Shown piece after piece: positions 9,666-28,315 of a DNA stretch of 64,000 nucleotides. Below the pieces are notes generated by a model. It was not told the DNA's origin and did no database searches. It was given only the letters and a program-made list of their open reading frames with translations. The position numbers and the translations under genes were made by a program. The stretch is from a bacterium (lineage in GTDB: Bacteria; Pseudomonadota; Alphaproteobacteria; Rs-D84; CACZYB01), in contig JAILLX010000088.1 in the NCBI GenBank assembly GCA_024692925.1, positions 152 through 64,151 of the forward strand. Direction: 5' to 3'. Every line of letters starts with the position of its first letter. Position 1 is the stretch's first letter.

Positions 9666-9917
9666 TTATTTTTTCTTCCAATTTCTTTCTAATTCAGAAA
9701 TAATTTCTTTTGCACTAACACCTATGGCATGAGCTACATCCAAAAATTCTATTACATCAAGACGTCTGTCGCCATTTTCATATTTTGAAATATATGATTG
9801 ATTTTTATGCAATACATCAGCCAATTTTTTCTGTGTAAGGCCCATTCTTTTTCTTGCATTAAAAATAAGTTTTAAAAAAAGTTTATTATTATCATTTAAT
9901 TGTCTTGTCATTTTCAA
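9666..9917 (-). CDS. XRE-family helix-turn-helix transcriptional regulator
   Basis: 83 aa; LTQKKLADVLHKNQSYISKYENGDR HTH_3-type motif. Confidence 0.8.
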   Translation of the reverse strand: MKMTRQLNDNNKLFLKLIFNARKRMGLTQKKLADVLHKNQSYISKYENGDRRLDVIEFLDVAHAIGVSAKEIISELERNWKKK

Positions 9918-10048
9918 ATCCTCCGTTAATTAAGATTATACAAAAGTATCCTTTAAATGCAATACCATAATTGATACCGACTCTAATAAAAAATTATTCT
10001 AAATTTTCAAAAAAACAAAGAAGTTGAAATTCAAAAAAATAAACAAAA

Positions 10049-10303
10049 TTACTTTTTCCCCTTTCTAATCATATTTTTTATAAAGGAAACAAGATATCGT
10101 TCTCCCTCTAAAAATCTTAATTCTGCATCACTTGATGTTGGCGACAAATAGCGATTAAGTGTAATTGAAACCAAATATTCCAAAACTTTTTTTCCACAAT
10201 CAGTATTAAAAGTTTTTACAAAATAAATAGGCATAACTTCTAACTCTTTTTTAAAATCTTTATCTTCCAATAAATCATTCATTCCTAATAAATCCTTTTT
10301 CAT
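10049..10303 (-). CDS. hypothetical protein (start reassigned to MKKDLLG)
   Basis: ORF with G-rich RBS; no recognisable motif; last gene of the minus-strand phage-like block. Confidence 0.35.
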   Translation of the reverse strand: MKKDLLGMNDLLEDKDFKKELEVMPIYFVKTFNTDCGKKVLEYLVSITLNRYLSPTSSDAELRFLEGERYLVSFIKNMIRKGKK

Positions 10304-10372
10304 AATTTCCCCCATAAATAAAAAAGGGTACCTTTTAAAAAGATACCCTATAAAAAATAATAACAAAAATTT

Positions 10373-11032
10373 TTATATAAATATTTGACCAGTCATTTTA
10401 AGTGTCTTTGGAAATGCTTTAAGACTACTGTTTCCACTTACAAAAATATGACCATTAACAAAATTATTTCCTGCAAAACTTAATGCTTCCGAATTAATAA
10501 GGTATATATTTCCAATCACATGGAAATTTTTCGGAATTTTTACAAAGTTAATATCTTTGATATACAAATCACCTTCGATTCGCACATTGGATTTAAGATA
10601 TTCCAAATGTCCCTTTGTAAACAAAACATTACCACTTATAACCTTAACTTTTGACGAAGATTTTTTAAATTTCACAACATTAGTTTTCTTCGAAGTCAAA
10701 ACTTGTTTACGGCAATTTTTACCATTACAAAGCAACTTTGCCTTATTCAAATATCTATCGCTTGCATAATTTTTAAGACCCGCAGAAAGAGGAATTCCTC
10801 TTTTAAACTCAACACCATCATCATAAACAAAATTAACTTTCGTAGGTCTTGCAAAAGGAACAAAAATATTTTCTGGTTTATCTTCTTTATTAGCCTTTAT
10901 ATAAGCACGAATTTCCGCCTTTTTAACTTCTTTTGCTGATTTTTTATAAGTTTTCATATAAACAAAACCACCCAAAATCATCAAAAATAATCCGGTAAAA
11001 ACAAGCATATATCTTTTTTGTTCAGTATTCAT
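10373..11032 (-). CDS. membrane-anchored hypothetical protein with C-terminal repeat-like region
   Basis: 219 aa; N-terminal TM helix; C-terminal N/I/G-rich repetitive segment (leucine-rich-repeat-like). Confidence 0.45.
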   Translation of the reverse strand: MNTEQKRYMLVFTGLFLMILGGFVYMKTYKKSAKEVKKAEIRAYIKANKEDKPENIFVPFARPTKVNFVYDDGVEFKRGIPLSAGLKNYASDRYLNKAKLLCNGKNCRKQVLTSKKTNVVKFKKSSSKVKVISGNVLFTKGHLEYLKSNVRIEGDLYIKDINFVKIPKNFHVIGNIYLINSEALSFAGNNFVNGHIFVSGNSSLKAFPKTLKMTGQIFI

Positions 11033-11111
11033 AATAACACCTTTTGGTTCAATTTATAGCTATAATTTATCCTCAAAATATTTATTTGTCAACTATTTTG
11101 TTTATTTTTTG

Positions 11112-11981
11112 TCATATTTTAAAATCAGTCCTAATTTTAAATGGAATATTAGGCAATTTCCGCACATTTCTTATTCTTCCACCAACAACAGCCGGCATTT
11201 TCACAGGCTCAGCCAAAATTGCACCAGCAACACTATCCAAACCATCATCATGAACATTGCTATCAACATTCCAGTCTGTAAATTCGCCAATAAACGGAGT
11301 ATTTTTCACTGATTCGTTCACAAAAAGATAGCCCGCAGACACAACCGCATCAAACGCATCCAAAATCCTAAGCTCCTTTGAAACCTTTGAAGTTTTTGCA
11401 ACAACAACCGTATCAATTCCCATTTTCAAAAGTTCGGATCTTAAAAACTCTGGTAAAAATTTACCAATACCATTACTTTCAACATTAATAAGCGGTACAA
11501 AATTTCTTTTTAAAAATCGCCCAACACTTTGACATTGATATCGTGCAGATTGCACATCCTCGCCGTCCTTAAAATAAAGATATTCCACATCATGCAGGTA
11601 ATACCGCCCATCTTCATCAATGAAAACAACTGACACAACCGAACCATCACCATTTTTGGAACCATACGCCGGATCCCACCAACAAGACATACTGATAATT
11701 CGTTTATCCATAATGGAAAAGAAAAGTTCCCTATTCCGCTCCTCTCGTTTTATCTCGGCATCATAGAATGAAAGTTTATTCACATCAAACCTTCCATCAC
11801 TAATATCAACCGGACAAAGCATCATCTGGGCTGAAAATTTTTTCATACCAACTGATTTTTTAAGTTGTTCTATTTTCTCCAACGGAAACTTTTCTTCCCA
11901 AACTGACTTTCCATTTTCAATAACCGGAATTTTCAAGACATCATAACCAATCAAAAAAGCATCGAAAACATCATCACTCAT
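11112..11981 (-). CDS. phage terminase large subunit, C-terminal nuclease (RNase H-like) domain only
   Basis: 289 aa; WWDPAYGSKNGDGSVVSVV (beta1 catalytic Asp) and C-terminal HDDGLDSVAGAI terminase signature; ATG overlaps the portal stop (ATGAGTGA). Confidence 0.8.
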   Translation of the reverse strand: MSDDVFDAFLIGYDVLKIPVIENGKSVWEEKFPLEKIEQLKKSVGMKKFSAQMMLCPVDISDGRFDVNKLSFYDAEIKREERNRELFFSIMDKRIISMSCWWDPAYGSKNGDGSVVSVVFIDEDGRYYLHDVEYLYFKDGEDVQSARYQCQSVGRFLKRNFVPLINVESNGIGKFLPEFLRSELLKMGIDTVVVAKTSKVSKELRILDAFDAVVSAGYLFVNESVKNTPFIGEFTDWNVDSNVHDDGLDSVAGAILAEPVKMPAVVGGRIRNVRKLPNIPFKIRTDFKI

Positions 11982-13485
11982 TTTTTACATCAATCAAATT
12001 TTCCGGCACAGAAAATGTCTTTGCAAGCCACAATGCAACCGCCTTTTTATCGACAATATTTGTTGCCTCTGTCCCAAGTTCAGAAAGAGCCTTTATCCAT
12101 GCCAAAATATTTTCCGCATCACGCACCGCCTGATTTTTTGCAAGTGGTGATTGATACTTCAAATCAACCTCATGCCCATCAATAAATATGTCTTCTATCT
12201 CACCCCTGCGTTTCAAAATTGAAACCGCACGAAGAATAACCGGCGTCAAAAATTCAGATTGAAGTCGGCCATATGTTGCACCCAAAATTCGGCTCATCTG
12301 ATTTGTTCGTTCAATAACTTCTGTCGCAGTCATCTTTGCCGAATTAAAAGATAAAATTTGATCCACCAAAAGACTGTGATTTATCTTTGCCCTTAAATCC
12401 GAAAGGACCAATTGCGAAACATCGAAATCCGCACCGGTCCTAAGTGGTGTAAGCCCACTTGACCCCACCGCCTTTGGAATAATTGTTCCCGGAGCCAAAG
12501 TAATATTTTCGATATTAAGGACACCATCATCATCCGCTTGCCAAACACCACTTACTGCAATTGATGCATTTTTAAGGATAAGTTCCACCACCTTATTTGC
12601 AGTTTTTATATCAGGCAAAGCACTCATCACCGGCGATCTTCCATAAATTTCTGATGGTACTTTCATCCATCTGAAACAAATGAACGGTGAGTTTGCAAAC
12701 ACCCCTGTTTTAAGGACAAATTTATGCCCAAGTTTAAGACAATTATTTTCATCAATTACGAATGCAACATAATTATAACCCTGTTGCCCACATGCATTTA
12801 TCCTTGGCAAAACAGCTTCTATCACCGTCACCATTTCATCCGGATTTTTATTTATATATGAAAGTTGTACTTCATCAAATTCAAAATTTGAAAACCTTAA
12901 TTTCAAATTCAAAAGTGAAAGATTTGTCCTTCTGAAAACCGTATCCAACTTACCATTCAAATTTTCCTCTAATGCAATTTCATTCATTGGCACCGCAGTA
13001 AATTTGAATGCAGAAACATCACCAACCTGATTTTCTTCCATAAGCATTACCGCAGTTCCAATAGTAATCAAATCCAAATAACACTGATGAGCTTCCACAT
13101 AAAAATTTGATCTATCGAAATGAGATTGCAAAGTTTTTTGTATCTTTTCCAATTGTTTGTATTTTTCGGATTTTGTATCTGCATCATCAATCACATCAAC
13201 ACCAAACCCAAGTCCAAACCATCGTGACCATGGTGGAGTAAGTTCCGATAAAATACTTCCTGCTAATTTTGCAACACCACTTTCCGCAGTCGAATCAAAA
13301 ATATCAGGACTTTTCTTTTTTGAATATTGCCCACCGGTAAAAAGTCCACCTTTTTGTGGCAAGGCAAAATCATAACATTCATTCCAATCTGGTTCCCACT
13401 CCAACCTTTTTTCCATTGCCAATTTGTATCTTGAATAAATTTTTTCAAGTTCCATTTCATCAACAACATATCTGTTTTCAAGCAT
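11974..13485 (-). CDS. T7 gp8-like head-to-tail connector (portal) protein
   Basis: 503 aa; alignable by eye to T7 gp8 (D..DSTAESGVAKLAG..L..L.PPW region; conserved YGRS motif in VPSEIYGRSPVMSAL). Confidence 0.8.
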   Translation of the reverse strand: MLENRYVVDEMELEKIYSRYKLAMEKRLEWEPDWNECYDFALPQKGGLFTGGQYSKKKSPDIFDSTAESGVAKLAGSILSELTPPWSRWFGLGFGVDVIDDADTKSEKYKQLEKIQKTLQSHFDRSNFYVEAHQCYLDLITIGTAVMLMEENQVGDVSAFKFTAVPMNEIALEENLNGKLDTVFRRTNLSLLNLKLRFSNFEFDEVQLSYINKNPDEMVTVIEAVLPRINACGQQGYNYVAFVIDENNCLKLGHKFVLKTGVFANSPFICFRWMKVPSEIYGRSPVMSALPDIKTANKVVELILKNASIAVSGVWQADDDGVLNIENITLAPGTIIPKAVGSSGLTPLRTGADFDVSQLVLSDLRAKINHSLLVDQILSFNSAKMTATEVIERTNQMSRILGATYGRLQSEFLTPVILRAVSILKRRGEIEDIFIDGHEVDLKYQSPLAKNQAVRDAENILAWIKALSELGTEATNIVDKKAVALWLAKTFSVPENLIDVKNE

Positions 13486-13507
13486 ATTAAACCCCTTTTC
13501 TTAAATT

Positions 13508-13542
13508 AAAAAAATCCCTTTAAGATAAAATTCTTAAAGGGA
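13508..13542 (-). terminator. rho-independent terminator downstream of ftsZ (minus strand)
   Basis: tccctttaag/cttaaaggga 10-bp stem followed by T-run on the minus strand. Confidence 0.6.
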
Positions 13543-13563
13543 GGTTAAAAAAAATTATAACTA

Positions 13564-15252
13564 TTATTTACTGCTATTATCCTTTTTAAATATTGCCGGA
13601 ATATGCATAGTTTCTTCCATTTTTTGCAACATTTCCATAATATCAGTTTGTTGAGCTTCTTGCTTTTGTTCTTCAAGTCCGCCCGCTAAAAATACGACAT
13701 TATCATCTTCGTGTTTTTCAGTTTTTTCCAATGCTTTCACTTCTAAATTTTCAGATTTCGAAAGCTTTGAATCATCATCACCGAATGTATCAACATCATC
13801 AAAGAAATTATCCTCTTTTGATTCGCCAAGCATATCAAAAAATGATGACAAAGGACTTTTCTTTTTTCCATTACCGCCGTTTGGATCGGTTGGATCATCA
13901 TCGCCATTATCATCATCTTTTTTTGAAACTTCAGCCTCATTCTTTTTTGTAATTTCTTCGGCTTCACGATTTATAAAATCGTCAATACTAAGTGATTCAT
14001 TTTTTTTCATAAAAGCGTCAAAACTATTATCTTCGGTTTGTCCCATATCCTTAAACAAACTTTCAGGTTCAGTTTTTTCATTATCCAAAACAAGTTCGTT
14101 TGCCCCAAGTTCATCAATTGCGACCGAAGGGTCTTTTTCAAATGTTTCGTTATCTATTGGCAAAGGTTTTTCTTCGACTTTTTTCTCTTCCTTTCTATCC
14201 GAAGAAAGAGAAGTCATAAAATCATTCACAACAGGTTTTGTCGCAAAAACATTACCATTTGAAACTGCTTCAGAAAGCCCAGTTGCAATAATCGCCACCT
14301 TTAAATTTTCGCCCATATTTGCATCAAAGCAAGTACCAAGATAAAAGTTTGTTTCATCGCCATCAATTTCACGTCTGATGCTATTCATCACCTCGGCTGG
14401 TTCATCCAAAGAAAGGTTTTCCGGATTCGCAGTAATATTCACCAAAACCGACCTTGCCCCCCTTATATCATTACCGGAAAGCATTGGGTTTTGCAAAACG
14501 CCACTTACTGCCTTAATCGCCCTATCCTCACCACTTTGAACTGATGTACCGATAAGGGTTCTTCCACTTTCCTCCATAACCGCACGAATATCCGCAAAAT
14601 CAAGGTTTATTGTACCTGGGATACGGATTAAATCAGTAATATTTTTCACCCCTTCATAAAGGACATTATCCGAAACCTTAAACGCATTCAAAAATGTCAT
14701 TTGCTTTCCCGCAACATGATAAAGGTTTTGATTAGGAAGCACGATATAAGAGTCCACATTTGGAACCAACTTTGCAATTGCATCGTTTGCAATTTTTTCC
14801 TTTTTCTTTCCTTCAAATTCAAACGGAGTAGTAATAATCGCCACGGTCAAAATTCCCTTTTCCCGAGCAAGCCCAGCAATCACCGGCATTGCACCACTAC
14901 CTGTACCGCCACCCATACCAGCAGTCAAAAAAAGTATATTAGTATTTTTAATTATATCAGAAATTTCGCCACTTGATTCTTCGGCTGCCTTCTGCCCAAC
15001 TTCTGGCCTTGAACCGGCACCAAACCCCTTGGTTGTCTGTTTACCAAGTTGAATTTTTTTCGAAGCCTTTGATTGAATAAGCGATTGTGCATCCGTATTT
15101 GCCACAACAAAATCGACACCATCGATTCCCTGACTAATCATATTATTTACGGCATTACAACCAGCCCCACCAACACCCATTACGGTAATTCGTGGAATAA
15201 AATTTTGAATTTCGTCGTCATTTGATTTATATCCGAAATTTCCTTCAATCAT
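13564..15252 (-). CDS. ftsZ: cell division GTPase FtsZ (long acidic C-terminal linker)
   Basis: 562 aa; ITVMGVGGAGCNAV, tubulin signature LFLTAGMGGGTGSGAMPVIA, NLDFADIRAVM; C-terminal HIPAIFKK resembles conserved DIPAFLR peptide. Confidence 0.92.
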   Translation of the reverse strand: MIEGNFGYKSNDDEIQNFIPRITVMGVGGAGCNAVNNMISQGIDGVDFVVANTDAQSLIQSKASKKIQLGKQTTKGFGAGSRPEVGQKAAEESSGEISDIIKNTNILFLTAGMGGGTGSGAMPVIAGLAREKGILTVAIITTPFEFEGKKKEKIANDAIAKLVPNVDSYIVLPNQNLYHVAGKQMTFLNAFKVSDNVLYEGVKNITDLIRIPGTINLDFADIRAVMEESGRTLIGTSVQSGEDRAIKAVSGVLQNPMLSGNDIRGARSVLVNITANPENLSLDEPAEVMNSIRREIDGDETNFYLGTCFDANMGENLKVAIIATGLSEAVSNGNVFATKPVVNDFMTSLSSDRKEEKKVEEKPLPIDNETFEKDPSVAIDELGANELVLDNEKTEPESLFKDMGQTEDNSFDAFMKKNESLSIDDFINREAEEITKKNEAEVSKKDDDNGDDDPTDPNGGNGKKKSPLSSFFDMLGESKEDNFFDDVDTFGDDDSKLSKSENLEVKALEKTEKHEDDNVVFLAGGLEEQKQEAQQTDIMEMLQKMEETMHIPAIFKKDNSSK

Positions 15253-15398: not shown

Positions 15399-15908
15399 TT
15401 ATTCGCTAATACTTACATTTGACAAAGCATTATTGCAATCTTCTGCCTTATCCATAAGTTCAGCAAGTTCCTTTGTCGATGATGCCGAAAGTGCCACCGA
15501 AACCAGATTTGCACCTGTCGCCACACCCGAAGCAATAGTCGATGCCAACCGCAAATTTTTCAACTTTGCATTATTATCTTTGTTTATATTTGTCTCAGAT
15601 TTTGCATTAGCTTTTTCACCAATTGCTATATTGTCTTTTTCTTCATTAGCCTTAATAATCTTGCCCGCCTTTAACGCAGCCATTGTGGATGTAGTCGCAC
15701 CAACACCACTTGCCACGGTCGCAACACCCGATGTCACACTGGTTCCAATTGATTTTGATTTCACTTCATTAAGCACAGATTTATCAAACACACAAGTGGA
15801 AATTACCGCCTCTATATTCTCAGCCTGCTTTTTAATTTTTGTGGAAGAAAGCTTTGCCTCCGCCCCAGTTGATACAAAAGCCAACAAAACCAAAATTAAT
15901 TTTTTCAT
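15399..15908 (-). CDS. secreted Gly/Ala/Thr-rich protein
   Basis: 169 aa; signal peptide; GVATVASGVGATTS / GVATGANLVS glycine-zipper-like segments; stop abuts the start of the upstream 553-aa gene. Confidence 0.45.
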   Translation of the reverse strand: MKKLILVLLAFVSTGAEAKLSSTKIKKQAENIEAVISTCVFDKSVLNEVKSKSIGTSVTSGVATVASGVGATTSTMAALKAGKIIKANEEKDNIAIGEKANAKSETNINKDNNAKLKNLRLASTIASGVATGANLVSVALSASSTKELAELMDKAEDCNNALSNVSISE

Positions 15909-17569: not shown

Positions 17570-17696
17570 TCCAATTCTCCCATAAATATATTAAACATAG
17601 TACCATATTTTTGGACATAATCCAAGCAATATTTGAAAAAATTTACTTTTTTTGTTGCGTTTTAGTAAAATATCGGTTATAAACTATACATCCGAT

Positions 17697-17772
17697 GGCG
17701 AGGTAGCTCAGTTGGTAGAGCAAAGGACTGAAAATCCTTGTGTCGGCAGTTCGATTCTGCCCCTAGCCACCA
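17697..17772 (+). tRNA. tRNA-Phe (GAA)
   Basis: Cloverleaf by hand: acceptor GGCGAGG/CCUAGCC (one G4.A69 mismatch), D-loop AGUUGGUAG, anticodon loop cuGAAaa, T-loop UUCGAUU, encoded CCA. Confidence 0.88.
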
Positions 17773-17779
17773 TAAATTC

Positions 17780-17810
17780 ACTCCCCACTGTTTTGTGGGG
17801 AGTTTTTTTA
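17780..17810 (+). terminator. rho-independent terminator after tRNA-Phe
   Basis: ctccccac...gtggggag hairpin + T-run. Confidence 0.6.
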
Positions 17811-20083: not shown

Positions 20084-20683
20084 CTAAGTTTTATAAATTG
20101 TATCCAATGTATGAGGTGTCCCAATAAAAATTTGCATACCATTTGGCACCAAAATAAAGCTATATTCCAAAAGTTTCTCTCTCAAATCTTGTCTTTTTTG
20201 AAAAGTATCGCAATTTTTTGGTACCTCCACATCATCACAAATCACAACATCAGCCCTACTTCCCGTAGCATTAGACATAAGTCCCACCGCCATCATAGAT
20301 GGATCCCGCAAAGCCACATCACGTGCCACGGTAAAACTTCCCGACGCCCACTCTGATTTTTTCTCAGGTCTAATTTCTTCTAACAAAGGAAAAGTTTCAA
20401 TAATTCGCTTAACATTTCTGACCATCTTTTTTGCCAAAACTGTATCCGCCGCAACCACTAAAATCCTAAGGTTCGGATTAGTATATAAAAGCCACGCACA
20501 AAACACACCAACTATTGTTGACTTTCCACTACTTCGAAACGCCATCAAAAGACCTTTTTTATTTTCAGATTTGTAAATATTCAAAAGCCACTTTGCAATA
20601 CGTATATGGTGCGATGGTGTCGAAAGTCCCTGAAATTTATTCCAATCCAAAAGGAATTTTTCAAAATCAACTTTTTCAACCAT
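20084..20683 (-). CDS. phage terminase large subunit, N-terminal ATPase domain only
   Basis: 199 aa; Walker A AFRSSGKST, ILVVAADTVLAKK, Walker B GSRADVVICDDVE, IFIGTPHT: matches Terminase_6N-type ATPase core; ORF stops after the ATPase domain. Confidence 0.82.
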   Translation of the reverse strand: MVEKVDFEKFLLDWNKFQGLSTPSHHIRIAKWLLNIYKSENKKGLLMAFRSSGKSTIVGVFCAWLLYTNPNLRILVVAADTVLAKKMVRNVKRIIETFPLLEEIRPEKKSEWASGSFTVARDVALRDPSMMAVGLMSNATGSRADVVICDDVEVPKNCDTFQKRQDLREKLLEYSFILVPNGMQIFIGTPHTLDTIYKT

Positions 20684-20684
20684 T

Positions 20685-21110
20685 TTATACTATATTCAAA
20701 TCACCAAATGAATCCAACAAATCCAAACTTTTCTTTCGCATAGTCAAAAGATTTTTATTTTTCTTATAGTTATAATTTATATCATTCGAAGCCAAAGCAA
20801 GATCGGAAAAATATTCCTTATTTTTAATTTCATCCTCTGCTTCTCTTTCCATACTACCAAGAAGGACTGCCGAAGACCCATCTGTAAAATCCACACCATT
20901 TGATGCCATCTTTGCTTTTTTACTTGCAACTTTTGATTTAAGAAGGTTTCTTTTTTCCTCCTCATAAAGTTCTTGTTTTTTCCTTAAATTATCCTCTTGA
21001 ATCTTTGCTTCTTTTTTTGCTAATTTTTTTGATTTTTTAGCATCTTGTATATCCATCACGGTTTTCGCAGCAGAAACAACTCCACCAATCACCGCAGCCG
21101 TAGTTCCCAT
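20685..21110 (-). CDS. hypothetical coiled-coil protein (position of T7 gp13-like internal/assembly protein)
   Basis: 141 aa; follows the gp12-like gene as gp13 does in T7; no direct motif. Confidence 0.35.
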   Translation of the reverse strand: MGTTAAVIGGVVSAAKTVMDIQDAKKSKKLAKKEAKIQEDNLRKKQELYEEEKRNLLKSKVASKKAKMASNGVDFTDGSSAVLLGSMEREAEDEIKNKEYFSDLALASNDINYNYKKNKNLLTMRKKSLDLLDSFGDLNIV

Positions 21111-21122: not shown

Positions 21123-22997
21123 CTATCTTATTACATCAACCAACATTGACATATTTAAAATTTTTAATTTACAAGGAGCCGAACTTTGAATTTTAAACAA
21201 AGGAATTTGGTAATTTTTAACAAAACCTTTTCCACGAATTTTTACATCACCAGAAAAATATTCATCATTAAGAATTATATTTTTAAGTCCCGCCCCTGTA
21301 TCTACTTCCAACTTTTCTGTATCCATAAGTCGTAAATTAAGTTCCAACAGTCTTACCGCCTTTGGAATAAAGCTTGAACCAACAAACAAAGGTAAAGGAC
21401 AAAAGATATGAGTAAAAGGAAGCCCAACAACAATATTTTTACAAGGCTTCGGCAAACTAACTTCATTATTTTCCACCCGTAAATTATAAATTTCACCATC
21501 CGCAACAACTACTACATCTTTATTATTTAAAAAGTCCAAATCAGTAATAGTCGAAATTTCCGTTATCGAAGATATTTTCTTTGCTTTATCAAGAAATAAA
21601 TCTTCATCAAAAACTTCTAAACTATAGGTTCCATCTCGTTCCACAACGACATAAACTTTATCAAATAACACAGCCAACGATTTAAACTTTCCATTGGTTT
21701 TATATTGCACCCACGCATTTGTATTATGACTTTTGTTTATAAGAAGTACTGCCAAAGTTCCATCTTCCTGTACAACATAAAGCCTTCGTTTTTTAACATT
21801 ATAATCTTGTTCCAATGGATTATTAAGAAGATGTGACGAAAGCAAAATTAAATCTTCGGATGAATAATTTTCACTTAAATCGCCATAGAAAAACTCTCTT
21901 ATTTCCTTTTTATTTCTTGCCACAAAAATTGTTGAACCTTCTACAAATTTCGGAGCAATATACCTATCATCCACCGACCCAATTTTTGTTTGTTGACTAA
22001 CACTGATATTCGACGGAGTAATCGGATTCCCAACAACCATCCATTCGGAATCAGATGTAAAAACTTGTAAATGTTTACCGGCAAAAACCGAAACTATTTG
22101 ATTACGCTTGTCTGAAAAAATATCAAATTCAATAGCTTCATCATCAAGTCCACTTCCCAAATCGAAATTAAAGTATTCACCAATTTTTGAAAACCACAAC
22201 CTATTTTTTAAAACATCAGTTCCACCAATCACAAGTCTGTTTTGATAAAAAGCAATACTTGCCGGATATCCACTTTTCTCAGAAAATGCCTGTTCTTGCC
22301 AATTTGCATCTGCATCTTTTGAATTCAAATCCACATTAACAGTTGCATTTGCAACACGTCCCGTAGAAACAGAATTTATCAGTATTTCTCCACCATTTAT
22401 CAAAATCTTCACACCGACATAAATACTGGAAAACAAAGATTGACTTGCCACAATTTTTATTTCCCCAGTTGTCCCATTAGGTGTCAATGTAATCCCTTCG
22501 GTACCATCAATTCTTGTATACGGTTCACACGAATATCCATATGTCGGATGTTTAGGATATATCCAAAAAGCAATAGTCCATGTTCCAACCAACTTATTAT
22601 ACCTAATAATCCGAGGCGGAATAAAAGGATGAACCAAATACAAAGTTTGTCCCTTTTGCACCCATCGCATCTTTGGCAAATCAGAAAGAGTATACGGTGA
22701 ATCTAATGTAGTCACAAACTCACCATTTTTATTAAAAATATCAATATATTCATCTCTGAAAAAAAGTAAAAACATACTGTCTTCGGAATATTCAAAGGCA
22801 ATAATTTTCCCATTTGATTCCAAACTTGAAACAAATTTCAAACCGCTTCGTCTTTCAATACCACCTGTCTGAATCACATCAAAATTAGTAAGGTTCATCG
22901 CCGAACTTCTGTATGCCGAAATATTTCCACGCCCAAACAAATTTCGTGAAAGTTCGCCAAACGAAAAATCATTATAAGTAATACTTTGTTTTGCCAT
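21123..22997 (-). CDS. T7 gp12-like tail tubular protein B
   Basis: 624 aa; KNRLWFSKIGEYFNFDLGSGLDDEAIEFD aligns to T7 gp12 RNRLGFLSG..AKYFNFYP..LSDDDPID; gene order gp11-gp12 preserved. Confidence 0.7.
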   Translation of the reverse strand: MAKQSITYNDFSFGELSRNLFGRGNISAYRSSAMNLTNFDVIQTGGIERRSGLKFVSSLESNGKIIAFEYSEDSMFLLFFRDEYIDIFNKNGEFVTTLDSPYTLSDLPKMRWVQKGQTLYLVHPFIPPRIIRYNKLVGTWTIAFWIYPKHPTYGYSCEPYTRIDGTEGITLTPNGTTGEIKIVASQSLFSSIYVGVKILINGGEILINSVSTGRVANATVNVDLNSKDADANWQEQAFSEKSGYPASIAFYQNRLVIGGTDVLKNRLWFSKIGEYFNFDLGSGLDDEAIEFDIFSDKRNQIVSVFAGKHLQVFTSDSEWMVVGNPITPSNISVSQQTKIGSVDDRYIAPKFVEGSTIFVARNKKEIREFFYGDLSENYSSEDLILLSSHLLNNPLEQDYNVKKRRLYVVQEDGTLAVLLINKSHNTNAWVQYKTNGKFKSLAVLFDKVYVVVERDGTYSLEVFDEDLFLDKAKKISSITEISTITDLDFLNNKDVVVVADGEIYNLRVENNEVSLPKPCKNIVVGLPFTHIFCPLPLFVGSSFIPKAVRLLELNLRLMDTEKLEVDTGAGLKNIILNDEYFSGDVKIRGKGFVKNYQIPLFKIQSSAPCKLKILNMSMLVDVIR

Positions 22998-23005: not shown

Positions 23006-23569
23006 CTATTTTCTTGCATCAATCAAAGAAAAATTTTTCAAAGATTCTGTTGTTTGTTGCATACCATCTATTGATTTTGCTTCTTTTATTTCAGAATTAA
23101 AAAGCCTGTAAAATAATGAATATTTTGATGTATCATTCAAAAGAGAAATCGAAAGTTCGGCAGCCATCAAATAAATAAATGATGAAACAAAAAGTGGTGA
23201 AAAACAATCCTCTCCTACATCAGAAATATACTCAAGTTCCACTTCTTCATCATTACAAAACAAATAGCTCCCTGCAATTTTGTATTTTACTCCTGATGAA
23301 ATTTTCACCGCCCTTAAAAAATCAGCCGGAAGAATATATGCATAACTGTAATCATAACGATTAACATCATCAGCCCTTGTCAACAACGCTGTTTTCAAGG
23401 CAAAACTCCACGCATAAAGGCAAAGAAGTTTTTGTTTTAATCCCAAATAAATACTTTCACAAATTTCCGATTCAACAGTTCCATCTTCAAAAGAAGTTAT
23501 CGAATTCGCCCCAATTTTATTAAGGGCTTTTGAACATAATTCAATATTTGAAAAACTCATATTACTCAC
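23006..23569 (-). CDS. T7 gp11-like tail tubular protein A
   Basis: 187 aa; N-terminus ELCSKALNKIGANSITSFEDG aligns to T7 gp11 [23 protein letters not shown]; size matches (196 aa). Confidence 0.65.
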   Translation of the reverse strand: MSNMSFSNIELCSKALNKIGANSITSFEDGTVESEICESIYLGLKQKLLCLYAWSFALKTALLTRADDVNRYDYSYAYILPADFLRAVKISSGVKYKIAGSYLFCNDEEVELEYISDVGEDCFSPLFVSSFIYLMAAELSISLLNDTSKYSLFYRLFNSEIKEAKSIDGMQQTTESLKNFSLIDARK

Positions 23570-23615
23570 CTTTTCCCTTTTTAAAAAAAGGGGGTCATTG
23601 CCCCCTTAAAATTTA

Positions 23616-23861
23616 CTAAACAACAGAAGATATACTTACTACACCCGCAGTAATCGCACTTACAACAAATATAGTTGTTTCCATTGTTCCATTTATAGAA
23701 GAAGATACAACAATCAAATCACCAACATTATAAATATTTGCAACATCGTTAAAATATCCTGATGTTGAAACAACACTCTTTGCATCTTCTGTTTTATAAT
23801 GCCACAAAGTAAAACCATTCGCATACGCAAGAACAGATAAATTTTTTGAATTCATACTCAT
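23616..23861 (-). CDS. hypothetical small protein between the capsid and tail tubular A genes
   Basis: 81 aa intact ORF; hydrophobic C-terminus. Confidence 0.35.
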   Translation of the reverse strand: MSMNSKNLSVLAYANGFTLWHYKTEDAKSVVSTSGYFNDVANIYNVGDLIVVSSSINGTMETTIFVVSAITAGVVSISSVV

Positions 23862-23896: not shown

Positions 23897-24727
23897 CTAA
23901 GCAATTGTTGCATCATCATCGCAAAGGATTTTTACAATACCTAAATTATCAATAAGTTTTGCACCCTGACTCATACAATTTGATACGAAATGAGATGCTC
24001 TTTCGCCATGCCATGAAATATCAGTTTTTACATCACAACCTGATGCATGACCTATTGCATTTTTGTGATAAATAAAGCAACTACGATTACCATCAGCAAT
24101 TGGCAAAGAATTATGTAAAATCCAATTAATTCCCATCCATTTTCTTGATTCTGTACCTTTCAAAAGAGGATATGAATCACCAACATAATCAGCACTGGAA
24201 AATTCTTCCATACTTAAAAGTTCATTCCATTGATGCACACCAACAACACCAAATCTTTGGCCATCATCCGGCACATCATTTGCATTTAAAAATTCTAATG
24301 CTTCAAAAATTTTTGATTTAGTAAGACCTGTTGAACCGGCACTAACCGCATTTGTTGCTTTATCAAGTTCTGAAATAATAAGTTCATCACTTTTTCTTCC
24401 CAAAGCATACGCACCAGCCGATGCAACAACTCTTCTTTCATCAATGTTTGTTTTAAGTTCATCAAGCTCGTCAACCCAATCCCCAGCATAGTAATCAGTA
24501 AGTACACATTCAACTGGTGTATGATCCAAATTCATCACTGGAACAAGTCCGTGTCTTGATTTAGTCGAAGCAATCCCCTTACCAATTTTTTGAAAAGTTG
24601 TTGAACTACCTCTTACATCATTTTTTGTTCTAACTGTTGAACGAAGTTTTGTTCCCATTTGTTGAAAAGCAAGGTGAACTTCCGCTTCGAATTGTTTTAT
24701 AAATACATTATCAATAGATACTGACAT
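23897..24727 (-). CDS. T7 gp10-like major capsid protein (HK97 fold)
   Basis: 276 aa; FEAEVHLAFQQ..RSTVRTKNDVRGSSTTFQKIGKG..ASAGAYALGRKSDELIISEL aligns to T7 gp10A FGGEVLTAF..SVTTSRHMVRSISSGKSAQFPVLGR..SQLGESLAMAADGAVLAEI. Confidence 0.78.
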   Translation of the reverse strand: MSVSIDNVFIKQFEAEVHLAFQQMGTKLRSTVRTKNDVRGSSTTFQKIGKGIASTKSRHGLVPVMNLDHTPVECVLTDYYAGDWVDELDELKTNIDERRVVASAGAYALGRKSDELIISELDKATNAVSAGSTGLTKSKIFEALEFLNANDVPDDGQRFGVVGVHQWNELLSMEEFSSADYVGDSYPLLKGTESRKWMGINWILHNSLPIADGNRSCFIYHKNAIGHASGCDVKTDISWHGERASHFVSNCMSQGAKLIDNLGIVKILCDDDATIA

Positions 24728-24835
24728 ATTTTAATCTCCTATATTTTATTAAAAAAAAGAGCAATATTTCTATTACCCAAACAAAAAATCCGCCTTGAAA
24801 CCAAGACGGATAAAAGTATAATTAAATCTTAAATT

Positions 24836-25396
24836 TTATTTTTTTACTTTTGTAATAATTGGTTCAATTCCCCTTACAATTCCATGCATCGAAGATATTG
24901 TAAACAAAACAGAAGCAAAAAATAGTACGAAAATTTGCACCGAAGATTCAATCAACTGTTTCGAATATTTTGTTAAAACCAAAAGATCTGTGTAAAACAA
25001 AATTGCAAATGCGAATGATACCAAAAATGAAACCAAAAGTTCGTATTTAAAAGATTTATTAAACACATATTCTATCTTTAATTTTTTCGATTTAATCATA
25101 ACATATTTTAAAATACCACACACAATAATAAAAGGCATAAATACTTTCACAATATTAAAAATTGCATCCACAACACCAATAAACATTATTTCGATTGGGT
25201 TCATTGCAAATCCAACAAGTTTATAAGTTTCCAACTTTTTAACAAAGGATTGTGTAAAGCATAAAATTACAGAAAGTACCAATACTGTTTTAATTATTGC
25301 ACCGGTATGATTATAAAAAAATCCCAACAATTTTCCAAAAAACGAAGATTTTTTATTTTCCTGTTTTCTGGTCTTGTTGGGATCCGAAACTACCAA
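24836..25396 (-). CDS. hypothetical polytopic membrane protein
   Basis: 186 aa; ~4 hydrophobic helices. Confidence 0.45.
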   Translation of the reverse strand: MVVSDPNKTRKQENKKSSFFGKLLGFFYNHTGAIIKTVLVLSVILCFTQSFVKKLETYKLVGFAMNPIEIMFIGVVDAIFNIVKVFMPFIIVCGILKYVMIKSKKLKIEYVFNKSFKYELLVSFLVSFAFAILFYTDLLVLTKYSKQLIESSVQIFVLFFASVLFTISSMHGIVRGIEPIITKVKK

Positions 25397-25404: not shown

Positions 25405-25839
25405 CTACTTCTTTGCTACTTTTTTTTTTGCTACTGGTTTAACAGCTTTCTTAACAGAAGCAACTTTTACAGCAGCTTTCTTAACAACGATTTTCTTTTT
25501 TGCTGGAGCTTTTACTGCAACTTTTTTTGCAGGAGCTTTTTTAGCAACTACTTTTTTAGCAGGAGCCTTTTTAACAGCAACCTTTTTAGCAGGAGCTTTT
25601 TTAGCAACTACTTTTTTAGCAGGTGCTTTTTTAACAGCAACTTTTTTTGCAACTACTTTTTTTGCTGGAGCTTTTTTAACAGCTACTTTTTTAGCAGGTG
25701 CCTTTTTAGCAGGAGCTTTCTTAACAGTAACTTTTTTTACTTCAACTTTTTTAACAGTAGTTTTTTTAACTTCAACTTTTTTTGCAGCTGGTTTTTTAGC
25801 AGCAGGTTTTACAGTTTTTTTAATTATACTTTTAAACAT
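25405..25839 (-). CDS. histone H1-like / Hc1-like Lys-Ala-rich DNA-binding protein (start reassigned to MFKS with AAGGAG RBS)
   Basis: ~144 aa; almost entirely KKAPAKKV(A/V)V decapeptide repeats; pI strongly basic. Confidence 0.72.
   Translation of the reverse strand: MFKSIIKKTVKPAAKKPAAKKVEVKKTTVKKVEVKKVTVKKAPAKKAPAKKVAVKKAPAKKVVAKKVAVKKAPAKKVVAKKAPAKKVAVKKAPAKKVVAKKAPAKKVAVKAPAKKKIVVKKAAVKVASVKKAVKPVAKKKVAKK
25440..25830. repeat. tandem ~30-nt coding repeats inside the H1-like gene
   Basis: gcaggagcttttttagcaactacttttttag... repeated >8x; the antisense ORFs 25297..25909 are artefacts of this repeat. Confidence 0.75.
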
Positions 25840-25929
25840 AATTCTCTCCTTAATTAAAACAAAAGACAATTACAATATACCACATAAAAAAGAATACTGC
25901 AATACTTAAATTAAAAAAATGCAAAAAAA

Positions 25930-26523
25930 TTATTCATCACCATACAAAAATTTAAAACCATCATCAACTTTTTTTATAAAATTTTTATCATTATCTCTCC
26001 AATATTTTGGATCCTTCATCATCTCTTTTAATTTTTCTTCTGTAATGACATCAGCAACTTCACCAGATTTTGCCATAACTTTTGGTTCACCCGAAGTCAT
26101 CATATTGTAAAGTGCAATCACGCCATAAAAAGATGTATTCAAAGATTGATAAATTTCAGCCGGTAAATTTTTATCAGCCCACAAAGAAATTTGTCGTGCA
26201 ATTTCATCAAATCTTTCTTCACCACCAAAATAATTTTCAAGCTTTGATAATTCTTTGTAAAGTTTAAATTCATTAACAACTTCCCTGATTTTTGGAATCA
26301 TAATTTCCGCAGCCAAATCATAAACAAGTTGTGCCTGTTCATTTGTAAATCCTGCAACTTTAAGCCTTTTGTTTACCTCTTCATCAATTGTTAAAAATTG
26401 GCTGTGAAGAACTATTTCATATCCCTTTTCTGCACCATCAGTTTTAAGTGCCAAATCCAAAATATCTTTGTTTGGATTAGTTTGCTTTTCATCCTGTTTT
26501 ATTTCAATTTTTTTATCTTCCAT
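25930..26523 (-). CDS. acidic helical protein, possible capsid scaffolding protein
   Basis: 197 aa; acidic, helical; position upstream of the capsid gene as gp9 is in T7; no direct motif. Confidence 0.3.
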   Translation of the reverse strand: MEDKKIEIKQDEKQTNPNKDILDLALKTDGAEKGYEIVLHSQFLTIDEEVNKRLKVAGFTNEQAQLVYDLAAEIMIPKIREVVNEFKLYKELSKLENYFGGEERFDEIARQISLWADKNLPAEIYQSLNTSFYGVIALYNMMTSGEPKVMAKSGEVADVITEEKLKEMMKDPKYWRDNDKNFIKKVDDGFKFLYGDE

Positions 26524-26637
26524 TTTTACCTCTATATAATTTAGTTTTCAAAAAATCAAACAACTCTATTAAAAAGAAATATTTGAATTTTCGTTTTTTA
26601 AATATTAACTTTAAAAGGAAACAAAGTTTCGACATAC

Positions 26638-26850
26638 TTATTTTTTTTTAGAATTTAGTTCATCGATTTTTGTTTGCAAACTGTCGGTAAGTTCACGACC
26701 CAAAAATATCACTCCGAACAAAGGAATAATAATCTGAAGTAAATCAATCAAACTTACATCGCCAACCAAATACATCGCAATACAAGAAATAAAACTTACA
26801 ACTGATGTGACCAAAGTTTTTTTATTTTTTAAGCAACCACCAATATTCAT
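26638..26850 (-). CDS. possible holin-like small membrane protein (start at internal MNIGG)
   Basis: ~70 aa; two TM helices followed by charged C-terminus (..LTDSLQTKIDELNSKKK). Confidence 0.3.
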   Translation of the reverse strand: MNIGGCLKNKKTLVTSVVSFISCIAMYLVGDVSLIDLLQIIIPLFGVIFLGRELTDSLQTKIDELNSKKK

Positions 26851-26866
26851 AATAACTCCTTTATTT

Positions 26867-27331
26867 TTACACATAAACATCAAAGAAAGAAAAACCATCC
26901 ACAATAAATTTTGGTTTAACATTGTTTGTTAAAAGATGGCTTTCCAATTTTTTATGAAAAGACAAAATATTTGAAAACTCTTCTTTTAAATTTCCACTTA
27001 ACACTTCATTTGCAATCTTTAAACATTTTTTGAAAACAGAATTATCAACACAAATTTCATCCATCATTTTCAAATTTTTCCAACATCGAAGTGATGTAAG
27101 TTCACTAACCATATTTGGTACATCATCAGAAATTTCCGCCTCAAAAATAAATCTGTTCATCAAAGTATTTGCAATCAATTCAATAAATTTATCACTTGGA
27201 TTTTTTGTTATTGCAAACAAAGTCTTTGCAAAAATAAATTTATTGATATTAGAATTAAGTTTAAGTTTTTTTATAAAATTTTTCTTTTCACCAACAATCA
27301 ATTTATTTACCTCCTGAAATTTTTTCCTCAA
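26867..27331 (-). CDS. hypothetical protein
   Basis: 154 aa ORF; no motifs. Confidence 0.35.
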   Translation of the reverse strand: MRKKFQEVNKLIVGEKKNFIKKLKLNSNINKFIFAKTLFAITKNPSDKFIELIANTLMNRFIFEAEISDDVPNMVSELTSLRCWKNLKMMDEICVDNSVFKKCLKIANEVLSGNLKEEFSNILSFHKKLESHLLTNNVKPKFIVDGFSFFDVYV

Positions 27332-27599
27332 TACGCAAAAGATGAGCCGTCAGTCTGTTTTCCACATCTTTCAAACAAGAAATAGATGCATAATTAACTG
27401 CGACATCAACCCTAAAGGAGGCAAGATTTTCAATCAAAGTAATTACATCTTTTTTTGATTTTGCCTCTACCTCCTTTACATAATTTTGCAAAAGGTAAAT
27501 ACTATTTTTCAAAAGCCAAAACCCACCCGCAAACAATGGAATTTCGACAACACTTATCCACCAGGATAAATTTATATTTTCCATTTTCACCCCCAACAA
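27303..27599 (-). CDS. hypothetical protein with N-terminal TM helix and coiled coil
   Basis: 98 aa; WWISVVEIPLFAGGFWLL TM segment. Confidence 0.35.
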   Translation of the reverse strand: MLGVKMENINLSWWISVVEIPLFAGGFWLLKNSIYLLQNYVKEVEAKSKKDVITLIENLASFRVDVAVNYASISCLKDVENRLTAHLLRIEEKISGGK

Positions 27600-27814
27600 T
27601 TTATGATTTTCGACCTAATGGGATAAGGAAATAATTTGCAAGAAAAGAAATTCATTGCAAACTTTTAAAACAACTTAAAAAAGAAATAAAAACGAAAAAG
27701 ACAAAGATTACTTTGGATATACTTATCCCATTAGTTGCCAAACACTATACCACATTTTTATCAAATTGTCAAGAACAAAATTGGAACAAATTTATTTTTC
27801 AAAACAAAAATCTG

Positions 27815-28315
27815 CTATAAATCAAGGCAATACCTTGAGTTTTTAAGGATAATATTTTTTTGTTTTCCAGTAATTTCTTCGATTTTTTTCCTTAAATTAT
27901 AGATATGCGTAGCCAAACTTTTCATCTGGGATTCGGTATTTTTTGAAAAAATCGCAATCGCCAAATCAGATGCCAAAATACCATCACTATTATTCATCAA
28001 TAACGAAAGAATTTTCACCTCTATATCCGTAAGCAATGCAACCTTATCACAAAATTTCATTTGTTTTAATTTTTGATTTAATGACATATTTCCAAATACA
28101 ATATCAACATTTTCACTTATCTTTGAAACCAAGTAAAATATATCAACCGGCTTTTCAAATACCATAGTTTCATTTACAACAATCCTGTCACCCAAATCAT
28201 CAAATACAAAATCCCCAGACCCCCTATCCACAACCTTAAATCCAAAAGTTGTAAATAAATCAGCAAAAGTCTGATACAAAATTTTATCGTCTATATTTAA
28301 ACAAATTGTCTTCAT
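27815..28315 (-). CDS. OmpR/PhoB-type winged-helix regulator with degenerate receiver-like N-terminus
   Basis: 166 aa; C-terminus LTDIEVKILSLLMNN.DGILASDLAIAIF......MKSLATHIYNLRKKIEEIT..KNIILKNSRYCL matches trans_reg_C; N-terminal alpha/beta region without the canonical phospho-Asp context. Confidence 0.6.
   Translation of the reverse strand: MKTICLNIDDKILYQTFADLFTTFGFKVVDRGSGDFVFDDLGDRIVVNETMVFEKPVDIFYLVSKISENVDIVFGNMSLNQKLKQMKFCDKVALLTDIEVKILSLLMNNSDGILASDLAIAIFSKNTESQMKSLATHIYNLRKKIEEITGKQKNIILKNSRYCLDL

Follow-up and report, generated by a model that had tools for sequence, protein, structure and literature searches.

Why should a bacterial chromosome keep the head, tail and packaging genes of a T7-like phage around the cell-division gene ftsZ, with no integration or replication module beside them? 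The question is raised by positions 9666–28315 of the 64,000-nucleotide stretch of alphaproteobacterial DNA analyzed here (contig JAILLX010000088.1; GTDB lineage Rs-D84, CACZYB01), which we refer to as the window. The window has a G+C content of about 33% and comes from a low-GC bacterial chromosome. An initial annotation had proposed that the block is a domesticated element, made of structural genes only, that is neither mobile nor a prophage. Conserved synteny, intact open reading frames (ORFs), purifying selection and the lack of mobility modules bear this out. We find it very probable that the block is domesticated and vertically inherited. The fuller reading, which we consider likely, is that it is the remnant of an HTVC010P-like podovirus, a "viriform", maintained by selection in uncultured Alphaproteobacteria that live mostly in animal guts.

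The block encodes a full set of genes for head assembly, DNA packaging and a short tail. Nearly all genes lie on the minus strand, as do the annotated features of the block given below unless marked (+). Pfam and PHROG profile searches upheld all of the gene calls first made here. These comprise a portal of the T7 gp8 family (11974–13485; PF12236, E = 2e-118, full length), a major capsid protein with the HK97 fold, of the T7/HTVC010P type (23897–24727; PF19821, E = 4e-75; phrog_3437), a scaffolding protein of the T7 gp9 family (25930–26523; PF05396, E = 4e-8), a tail adaptor resembling gp11, or tail tubular protein A (23006–23569; phrog_394 tail protein, E = 9e-40; phrog_9239), and a tail nozzle resembling gp12, or tail tubular protein B (21123–22997; phrog_376 tail protein, E = 2e-109). 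The gp8-type portal, gp9 scaffold, gp10-type capsid, and gp11 and gp12 tail proteins of T7-like phages are thus all represented. Three small proteins accompany them. A 141-aa internal virion protein in the gp13 position (20685–21110; phrog_418, E = 7e-9) has homologues that sit after gp12 in 60 loci. The conserved protein p81 (23616–23861; phrog_18004, E = 5e-14) was found in 56 loci, always encoded after the capsid gene. A Bbp19-like protein (10049–10303; PF25181, E = 2e-8) belongs, in relatives, after the portal gene. Mechanically called ORF starts overshoot for Bbp19, and for p98, p94 and the K-rich ORF discussed below. The T7 gp14–gp16 core/ejection proteins and gp17 fibre were not found in the window, where the 141-aa protein is the sole internal protein.

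The large terminase (TerL) is encoded in two pieces. TerL-N, the ATPase domain (20084–20683, 199 aa), matches positions 270–459 of phrog_38 (E = 3e-42), and TerL-C, the RNase-H-like nuclease domain (11112–11981, 289 aa), matches positions 468–712 (E = 4e-41; also PF17289 and PF22530). The two genes are 8 kb apart and match neighbouring parts of one profile. In alignments, the break falls in the interdomain linker, with about 10 aa missing relative to one-piece relatives. The Walker A (GKS) and Walker B (CDDVE) motifs of TerL-N and the acidic residues of TerL-C (WDP, DDGLDS) are unchanged in all genomes aligned, in line with the original description of two catalytic halves. In one relative, L017, TerL-N and TerL-C are separate ORFs but adjacent, about 215 nt apart; downstream come host ABC-transporter genes, p219 and ftsZ, the last 8 kb away. 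Since the halves in L017 are adjacent yet already split, the split seems older than the separation, and this arrangement, the SZUA-605 type (L017/L094), looks like an intermediate. Another relative, L036 (ZodW_Metabat.18), has the order capsid–p81–gp11–internal virion protein–fibre–TerL-N–portal–Bbp19–p98–p154b, and then, after other genes, gp12–p94–scaffold; TerL-C was not found within 20 kb. The L036 and L017 arrangements look like steps in the scrambling of the cluster. We could not derive the present order from the ancestral one by a simple rearrangement of one or two steps; no ancestral block adjacency survives.

Is this arrangement real, and is it kept? Loci were fetched through portal relatives and a TerL-N alignment scan, with one genome per GTDB species, and are numbered with an L. 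Portal relatives form a tight set of 59–84% identity, on contigs of metagenome-assembled genomes (MAGs) of up to 365 kb, before identity drops to about 53%. The clade so defined shares one order: p98–p154b–(p94)–scaffold–K-rich–p186–capsid–p81–gp11–gp12–internal virion protein–(fibre)–TerL-N; then 0–6 kb of variable sequence; then ftsZ; then portal–TerL-C–p219–Bbp19. This scrambled order is common to L002/L008, L009, L011, L012–L016, L004, L006, L018, L080, L175 and L176; partial loci show only part of it, and p94, p219 and Bbp19 were not all detected in L018, L080 and L006. Together with the split terminase and embedded ftsZ, it is present in at least 13 independently assembled relatives, which answers the call of the initial annotation for a comparison of synteny. 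In the deepest branches, L018 and L080, ftsZ lies directly between TerL-N and the portal gene, with gaps of about 55–200 nt. The assemblies come from different projects, which excludes mis-assembly; judged from record names, their sources include the rumen, human gut and termite gut. In a neighbour-joining tree of TerL-N, capsid and gp12, calculated without support values, the clade is monophyletic with L017 and L036 as its sisters. FtsZ and the portal occur on shared contigs in at least 16 distinct 90%-identity clusters. When 80 loci were retrieved by FtsZ only, all three clade members had adjoining cluster genes, as far as their contigs reach, and cluster genes were seen in 0 of the 77 other alphaproteobacterial loci; L175 and L176 were found this way. 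The next-closest FtsZ lineages have lexA–recA or sugar-metabolism genes beside ftsZ.

The core genes are under strong purifying selection, as the initial annotation had suggested should be checked. Ratios of non-synonymous to synonymous substitution rates (dN/dS, NG86 method) are 0.07–0.21 for the capsid gene, 0.08–0.20 for TerL-N, 0.11–0.23 for portal, 0.13–0.31 for TerL-C, 0.15–0.37 for scaffold and 0.17–0.39 for gp12, or about 0.07–0.3 for the core overall. The comparison genes give 0.08–0.28 (ftsZ) and 0.21–0.39 (the flanking traT and tsaB). Synonymous differences (pS 0.4–0.7) are near saturation, making all of these ratios rough; non-synonymous differences are few. Identity across the clade is 76–93% for capsid, 54–83% for scaffold and 43–88% for FtsZ, the capsid being better conserved than FtsZ, and the pairwise identities of seven structural genes track those of FtsZ (r 0.86–0.95, Mantel p ≤ 0.0015). 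These data bear on the simplest explanation, that the block is an ordinary defective prophage in slow decay and that rearrangement and split terminase are damage. The interrupted terminase, scrambled order, degenerate endolysin and several missing modules would fit. However, the same "damage" recurs in at least 13 lineages across saturated synonymous divergence. All ORFs of the structural module are intact in the window, as first reported, and so are the core ORFs throughout the relatives. The cluster promoter is conserved, and the 3′ end of the portal gene still overlaps the start of TerL-C by 8 nt. We regard decay as very improbable.

The surroundings of the block are those of a chromosome. 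Upstream lie tyrS, groEL, rmuC, def, fmt and truA; downstream, traT, tsaB, a GGDEF gene, ksgA and rplI; and the other 30 kb of the window hold MacAB-TolC-type efflux genes, clpP, nusA, infB, a gene for a GyrB/ParE-type topoisomerase subunit, pgi and mutL. On either side of the block, and through the remainder of the 64 kb, the genes are of the housekeeping kind. Third-position G+C content is 0.237 in the cluster and 0.245 in host genes. Profile searches of the window proteins found no integrase, transposase, replication or immunity genes, repeat searches around the block returned just AT-rich chance matches in place of attachment (att) sites, and no excision signature was seen in the window. 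The early claim that integration and replication modules are missing holds for the whole contig, where the other absent phage modules did not turn up either. A phage single-subunit RNA polymerase and DNA replication genes are likewise absent from the window and from beside the relatives' clusters. For the RNA polymerase this is no loss, because relatives of the HTVC010P-like ancestor never show one. None of the marks of a prophage was found, be it an integrase, att sites, immunity or replication genes, or variable sites in close relatives; the position is identical in the window, L002 and L014. Scattered through the housekeeping regions are a few conjugation- or type IV secretion-related genes: one for a TrbC/VirB2-type pilin (4788–5426), one for a PilS-N-like pilin (31602–32102), and one for a TraT lipoprotein (28397–29023) that directly adjoins the cluster and is syntenic in L008, L009 and L011.

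Could the block instead be an active temperate phage or other mobile element, with an ftsZ homologue of its own on board as cargo and a choice of insertion sites? The flanks of distant members do differ, with truA/fmt in the window, L002 and L014, mipZ/obg in L004 and murJ in L006, and, with ftsZ located within the block, its co-divergence with the structural genes is no independent test. Against this, the element is only 18.6 kb long and has no integrase, transposase, replication genes or repeats. Its FtsZ is of the canonical alphaproteobacterial type, expressed from its own promoter and ended by its own terminator. The truA–fmt flank (window, L002, L014) and the traT flank (window, L008, L009, L011) are common across sub-clades at host-like divergence, and no member of the clade appears among 2.9 million IMG/VR contigs. 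We give this possibility almost no credence. Decaying prophage, active prophage and ftsZ-carrying mobile element are all contradicted by the data.

Inside the block is a canonical ftsZ (13564–15252; PF00091, PF12327; GGGTGSG, NTDAQ and a C-terminal IPAIFKK). It has its own extended –10 promoter and a strong ribosome-binding site (RBS), and is located between TerL-N and portal in every clade genome. A strong intrinsic terminator (13515–13542) follows ftsZ and ends about 23 nt ahead of the portal ATG; in nine genomes, a hairpin and T-run stand 20–30 nt before the portal RBS, conserved in position but not in sequence. This spacing leaves no room for a portal promoter. Expression of portal, TerL-C, p219 and Bbp19 would therefore require read-through or antitermination at the ftsZ terminator, and so would be wired to ftsZ transcription. 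That ftsZ and a tRNA lie inside the block had been noted at the outset; both are between the TerL halves. The tRNA-Phe gene (17697–17772, +) is part of a variable insert (15399–19016), with p395, p553 and p169, that is host cargo outside the conserved core and is absent from L080, L018 and L004. Proteins p395, p553 and p169 have no Pfam or PHROG matches. Both p553 and p169 (15399–17569) begin with hydrophobic, signal-peptide-like segments; their small family also has a 526-aa paralogue 30 kb away (47176–48756) and members in the host DNA that flanks L004 and L015, and they are probably surface proteins. We considered p553, p169 and p395 as tail fibres and rejected them, given the signal peptides, the in-window paralogue, the patchy distribution and the lack of any link to the fibre family. 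Two unrelated members have a gene for a MipZ/ParA-type ATPase directly next to the cluster: in L004 it adjoins Bbp19 (13456–14271, minus strand), and in L088, of Magnetospirillum gryphiswaldense, it follows the scaffold gene (12594–13220, plus strand). MipZ positions FtsZ in Alphaproteobacteria. The adjacency may be a second link between the cluster and cell division, or a coincidence.

Compared with the wider family described below, the window clade has lost the ORF in the small-terminase (TerS) position, a holin with three transmembrane (TM) helices, an S24 repressor with its small ORFs, and the GEARGE motif of the endolysin. A PF03906-type fibre gene is lost in the window, L008, L009 and L011 only; other members have it between the internal protein and TerL-N. 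The initial annotation had reported no fibre, no gp14–16 and no endolysin in the window. The first two statements stand, while a degenerate homologue of SleB-type (Hydrolase_2) endolysins, p154b, is present at 26867–27331. Its relatives match PF07486 (E = 1e-18 to 1e-21); the window protein has no Pfam match. The GEARGE motif, which holds the catalytic Glu of SleB-type enzymes, is lost in alignments across the whole clade, and dN/dS values of 0.5–0.8 indicate relaxed selection. The first gene of the operon encodes p98 (27303–27584; phrog_29007, E = 9e-18), with an N-terminal TM helix and coiled coil, an invariant C-terminal motif in alignments and dN/dS of 0.06–0.14; in relatives it lies between TerL and the endolysin, a spanin- or holin-like position. 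The small membrane protein p94 (26638–26850) has two TM helices and a predicted holin-like architecture, from hydropathy, and homologues only in the clade, L017, L036 and L080. For p98, p94 and the TerS-position ORF, function is assigned by position alone; neither p98 nor the TerS-position ORF had a match in PDB profile searches. It is unlikely that p98 is a small terminase, given its TM helix and coiled coil.

Such losses could point to a helper-dependent, satellite-like element that makes heads and tail stubs and for which a co-resident or infecting phage supplies fibres, ejection proteins, small terminase and lysis. Capsid-forming phage-inducible chromosomal islands (cf-PICIs) live in this manner: they are chromosomal, encode their own capsid, portal and terminase, and lack some virion functions. 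They are also mobile, with an integrase, replication genes and induction by a helper. The functions missing locally from the window are exactly those a helper would provide. Of the mobility features of cf-PICIs, however, the window cluster has none: there is no integrase, replication origin or initiator, or excision signature, and the block occupies a fixed chromosomal place with ftsZ inside. Nor did INPHARED or IMG/VR yield a true phage of this lineage for the clade. We judge a satellite very unlikely, if somewhat less so than decay.

The clade has gained genes as well, namely those for a K-rich protein, p186, p94 and p219, besides the ftsZ insertion. The K-rich protein (25405–25839; low-complexity match to PF07382, HC2) is rich in Lys, Ala and Pro and basic in the way of histone H1. 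Its ORF (25405–25869) contains 19 copies of a 15-nt tandem repeat (family D1), and the product has an isoelectric point of 11.2. It stands between scaffold and capsid throughout the clade, with orthologues in 12 loci including L080 and L018 and a pN of 0.12 against a pS of 0.38, and could be a DNA-condensing protein. The strand opposite this ORF contains long spurious ORFs. Protein p186 (24836–25396) is a clade-specific membrane protein with four TM helices by hydropathy and orthologues in 12 loci; as a diverged GTA_holin_3TM it was rejected (hhalign probability 0.15). Protein p219 (10373–11032) has an N-terminal TM anchor and a C-terminal beta-solenoid in an AlphaFold2 model (predicted local distance difference test score of ~80 for residues 130–219). 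Just 20 homologues were found in 5.8 billion proteins, all within the clade, and a Foldseek search of the model against the PDB gave generic beta-helix matches only (E > 0.2).

These gains and losses lend weight to a serious alternative, namely that the genes make an exapted particle or sub-assembly that does not transfer DNA. It could be a container, a host-interaction device, a defence decoy that interferes with related phages, or a division-linked device for DNA disposal or chromosome processing. Gone or inactive is the lysis cassette, and gone too are the TerS-position ORF and, from the window sub-lineage, the fibre; the clade has acquired membrane proteins of its own and a histone-like protein, and the wiring to ftsZ is tight and conserved. 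There is also precedent: symbionts of the Rickettsiales and Holosporaceae keep head and portal genes of gene transfer agents (GTAs) without tails and under purifying selection, and repurposing has been suggested (George et al. 2022, PMC9254644). Those clusters are likewise found in host-associated Alphaproteobacteria that retain capsid, portal and terminase while tail or lysis functions are missing; they differ in being homologues of the agent RcGTA, whereas the window cluster is of the podovirus type and keeps its short tail. Two observations speak against exaptation of this kind. The catalytic residues of both terminase domains are intact and the two genes rank with the most constrained, which argues that DNA is still packaged; and adaptor and nozzle are also constrained, which argues for a closed, tailed particle and not a bare shell. 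We consider a non-transfer role rather unlikely, though worth keeping in view.

How might the cluster be expressed? Regulatory genes bracket the block, as first described and as profile searches confirmed. At its 3′ end is a gene for an XRE-family helix-turn-helix protein (9666–9917; PF01381, E = 8e-14), present in the window, L002, L009, L011, L014 and L176 and not beside Bbp19 in L004/L015. At the other end, upstream of the cluster promoter, is a gene for a 166-aa protein with an OmpR/PhoB-type winged-helix C-terminal domain (27815–28315; PF00486, E = 2.7e-8), a short atypical N-terminus, a weak PDB match to 2k4j and dN/dS of 0.4–0.6. It occurs in four genomes only (window, L008, L009 and L011); for a 166-aa ORF upstream of the L014 cluster we found no evidence of an OmpR-type regulator. 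The cluster promoter (27744–27792) reads TTGACA–17 nt–TG-n-TATAGT, matching 11 of 12 consensus positions with an extended –10. It is near-invariant in the window, L008, L009, L011 and L012–L016, and its –35 region extends to L080. A direct repeat, TGTTY-N6-TGTTC, precedes and overlaps it, and the 11-bp spacing would be typical of OmpR/PhoB-type sites. Just downstream of the –10, in the same place in nine clade genomes, is the leader element CTAATGGGATAAnTnTATCC (27715–27734), with the palindrome GGATA-N4-TATCC, a candidate operator or 5′ untranslated region (UTR) hairpin. Part of it, CTAATGGGATAA (27723–27734), has a second, inverted copy at 27615–27626 (+), in this genome only, about 100 nt downstream in the p98 5′ UTR; the 64 kb hold no further exact copy. 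The two copies could form a 12–13-bp long-range stem in the transcript. CtrA boxes (TTAA-N7-TTAA) number 5 against about 10 expected, with none at the cluster or ftsZ promoters, so control by CtrA is unsupported.

Within the operon, a terminator-like hairpin (23588–23607) follows capsid–p81, where T7 has T-phi after gene 10, and a second hairpin with a T-run (24788–24811) precedes the capsid gene. By analogy with T7 gene 10, hairpins bracketing capsid–p81 may set the ratio of capsid to tail expression. Directly after TerL-N is a small-RNA gene (19850–20012), with a 12/12 sigma-70 promoter (20012–19985, TTGACA-16-TATAAT). The RNA is about 130 nt long with four hairpins, and 9 of 34 pairs are compensatory in alignments; the loop of its terminator hairpin, AUUCCCUCCUUAUUUUCUCUCUCUCCU, is 28 nt long, CU-rich and anti-Shine-Dalgarno-like. 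This gene is present in 10 clade loci, and in the same place in L008, L009, L010, L011, L013–L016 and L004. A second terminator hairpin with a CU-rich loop (19565–19630, +) marks a related small-RNA gene, inverted in the window and L008 relative to L009, L011, L014 and L015. There are two or three such hairpins per genome. ORFs of 85 and 125 aa in this region (19416–19993) were discarded as genes, as they are really conserved small-RNA genes. Rfam searches (gathering threshold over the whole window; permissive over 18900–20150) returned tRNAs only, leaving the small RNAs unmatched. It is possible that these RNAs target the RBSs of ftsZ or of cluster genes.

Taken with the genes, these signals suggest how a domesticated podovirus could still work. 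A single near-consensus sigma-70 promoter, gated by the repeat or an operator, would drive p98 through TerL-N, and the distal operon would be reached through the ftsZ terminator. Procapsids would assemble on the portal with scaffold; TerL-N and TerL-C would act jointly and, with no recognizable small terminase, package cellular DNA non-specifically, with which the missing TerS is compatible; gp11 and gp12 would close the particle. The ancestral route of release is unusable, because the endolysin motif is lost and the holin gone. Release would proceed otherwise, perhaps by way of p94, p186 and p219, the membrane proteins specific to the clade. With the fibre gene absent, delivery to other cells is uncertain in the window sub-lineage. 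That both terminase domains, the portal, capsid, scaffold, adaptor and nozzle are all constrained speaks for continued production of DNA-filled tailed particles, and we think it probable that particles are still built. GTA-like transfer of DNA between cells may also occur; here we are more doubtful than confident.

Several points weigh against a GTA-like, particle-forming element. No small terminase is recognizable in the clade, no tail fibre gene was found in the window, L008, L009 and L011, and no large ejection proteins of the gp15/gp16 kind are encoded locally. The clade has no dedicated holin/endolysin release, the motif being lost and the 3-TM holin absent; a motif-dead endolysin, the absent holin and TerS-position ORF and, in the sub-lineage, the absent fibre therefore make classical lysis, release and adsorption doubtful. 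A cycle of lysis, release, adsorption and injection is not encoded locally, and its genes may lie elsewhere in the genome. The two-polypeptide terminase is a putative motor, and particles and packaged DNA are predictions from the genes. Codon usage in the cluster is near that of the host but not identical (relative synonymous codon usage, r 0.85 against 0.98 in a host-versus-host control). Finally, the clade genomes are all MAGs, and the dN/dS values have the roughness noted above. On the other side, the block consists of structural and packaging genes of caudovirus descent, with no replication or integration genes of its own, and is inherited vertically and under purifying selection. The best reading is that the cluster belongs in kind with GTAs and viriforms, minus one classical feature, a dedicated lysis system. 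The interpretation offered at first holds in part, for a domesticated, non-mobile element of structural genes only; a GTA function is putative.

Comparison with known systems places the element more precisely. The nearest cultured phages are HTVC010P-type pelagiphages, whose portal is 31–34% identical over its full length. Their gene order matches that of compact relatives such as L020: TerL, small ORFs, portal, a small ORF, a gene in the scaffold position, capsid, small ORFs, tail A, tail B and a small protein; neither has an RNA polymerase. They differ as true lytic phages of 35 kb that have replication genes, a working endolysin and numerous genes for tail and fibres; identity is low, and the window element keeps only about 12 of their genes in scrambled order. 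The T7-like ancestry first proposed is apt for the structural module, but HTVC010P-like podovirus is the better description of the ancestor. In common with RcGTA (Rhodogtaviriformidae), the element is a phage-derived head, tail and packaging cluster that lacks replication and integration genes, passes vertically with its host under purifying selection and has host-type composition; the wider family, though not the window clade, also shares the PF11351 "GTA holin" next to the endolysin. RcGTA is of the siphovirus type, with a long tail and an independent origin, whereas the window has podovirus-type PF12236, PF19821, gp11 and gp12 proteins, a split TerL, an embedded ftsZ and, across its clade, a lost lysis module. 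None of the window proteins showed homology to RcGTA g1–g15; all matches are to podovirus families.

A GTA derived from a podovirus would, it had been supposed, be new. That now holds only in part: FpGTA of Faecalibacterium prausnitzii has been reported as the first podovirus-like GTA (Nat Commun 2026, PMC12946183). The other known GTAs comprise three formally recognised viriform families, none of podovirus origin, and a handful of further independently domesticated phages (PMC9662315). Like the window element, FpGTA comes from a gut bacterium and has podovirus-like content, with TerS, TerL, portal, scaffold and capsid genes in an operon without replication genes. It differs in belonging to the Firmicutes, in having been shown by experiment (particles, ~8.5-kb DNA, proteomics), and in its TerS-like gene, its intact TerL and its second operon, which encodes a receptor-binding protein, holin and endolysin. 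Going by description, the window element is set apart by its alphaproteobacterial host, its split TerL and its lack of a functional lysis cassette. In the literature searched, whose coverage was incomplete, we found no description of a domesticated T7/HTVC010P-type cluster in Alphaproteobacteria.

Nor is the cluster the one-off that the initial annotation implied; it is a rearranged branch of a large alphaproteobacterial family. A scan of GTDB species genomes confirmed 385 relatives, with TerL-N 55–62% identical, in hosts such as Magnetospirillum, Micavibrio aeruginosavorus, Terasakiella, Thalassospira, Telmatospirillum, Asaia and Magnetovibrio (loci L019–L087, L088, L089, L092 and L020). In these, TerL is a single ORF of 480–510 aa, and the order is S24 repressor–three small ORFs–portal–Bbp19–scaffold–capsid–p81–gp11–gp12–internal protein–fibre/tailspike–small ORF in the TerS position (phrog_31793)–TerL–p98–Hydrolase_2 endolysin–3-TM holin (PF11351). 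The TerS-position ORF is annotated in PHROGs as "unknown function" only. Orthologues of portal, Bbp19, scaffold, capsid, p81, gp11, gp12, internal virion protein, TerL, p98 and Hydrolase_2 place the window clade in this family; window proteins are 35–63% identical to those of the wider-family loci, and the clade nests beside them in the tree. What sets it apart are the split TerL, the order of its genes, the embedded ftsZ and the modules it has lost.

The wider family, too, appears settled in its hosts, at conserved chromosomal sites and under purifying selection. Host genes bound the cluster in 4 of 4 annotated contexts. The M. gryphiswaldense locus has argH and lysA upstream and rpmI and pheST downstream; only portal–Bbp19–scaffold are found there, and the cluster genes of this organism are dispersed over more than one locus. 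Two other loci have lysS upstream, and L020 has dnaE on one side and a gene for a CpaF-like ATPase on the other. A Pfam census of 20 loci, taken over 134 ORFs that lie downstream of the lysis genes, gave icd (8), folD (7), nhaA (7) and EamA (6), and no integrase or replication family was among the 25 families listed. Flanking gene families are common to 8–11 species-level loci within the Micavibrio-like and Terasakiella-like groups, and in species pairs the cluster genes have pS of 0.6–0.8 and pN of 0.04–0.25, like their flanks. IMG/VR lists many wider-family clusters as "proviruses" of 9–26 kb, about cluster size. A 5-kb "Bacteriophage sp." record from a human faecal sample from Mexico (L093, MT838907.1; GC 51%) carries the wider-family genes portal–Bbp19–scaffold–capsid–p81–gp11–gp12, with a capsid 73% identical to that of L020; it would hint at packaged cluster DNA if it derives from a virus-like-particle fraction. 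From sampling, not an exhaustive survey, the whole family looks like domesticated clusters of structural and lysis genes only. The clusters occur in Rhodospirillales-like, Micavibrio-like and gut "Rickettsiales-like" MAG lineages, which, to our knowledge, have been reported to lack complete RcGTA clusters.

What does this mean for these bacteria? Apparently a T7/HTVC010P-type podovirus was domesticated independently within the Alphaproteobacteria to give this cluster. Tentatively, many early-branching members of this class may harbour an ancient second GTA-like viriform family of HTVC010P/T7 descent, in which clusters of structural and lysis genes with an S24 repressor occupy a fixed chromosomal site; the window clade would be its extreme derivative, with a split packaging motor, lysis abandoned, and portal and nuclease expressed by read-through of the ftsZ terminator. 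Because relatives are found in cultured strains of M. gryphiswaldense, M. aeruginosavorus, Terasakiella pusilla and Thalassospira profundimaris, the formation of DNA-filled particles is directly testable. With its large terminase long kept as two genes, the window clade serves as a natural experiment on how the domains of packaging motors are coupled, and the loss of the lysis cassette from a cluster whose particle genes are strongly selected makes one ask what purpose the particles serve. Of general interest, too, is that a viral operon has had an essential cell-division gene fixed in it, with a portal dependent on read-through of its terminator. If the proposed wiring is correct, cell division and particle production would be linked by transcription that reads through the ftsZ terminator.

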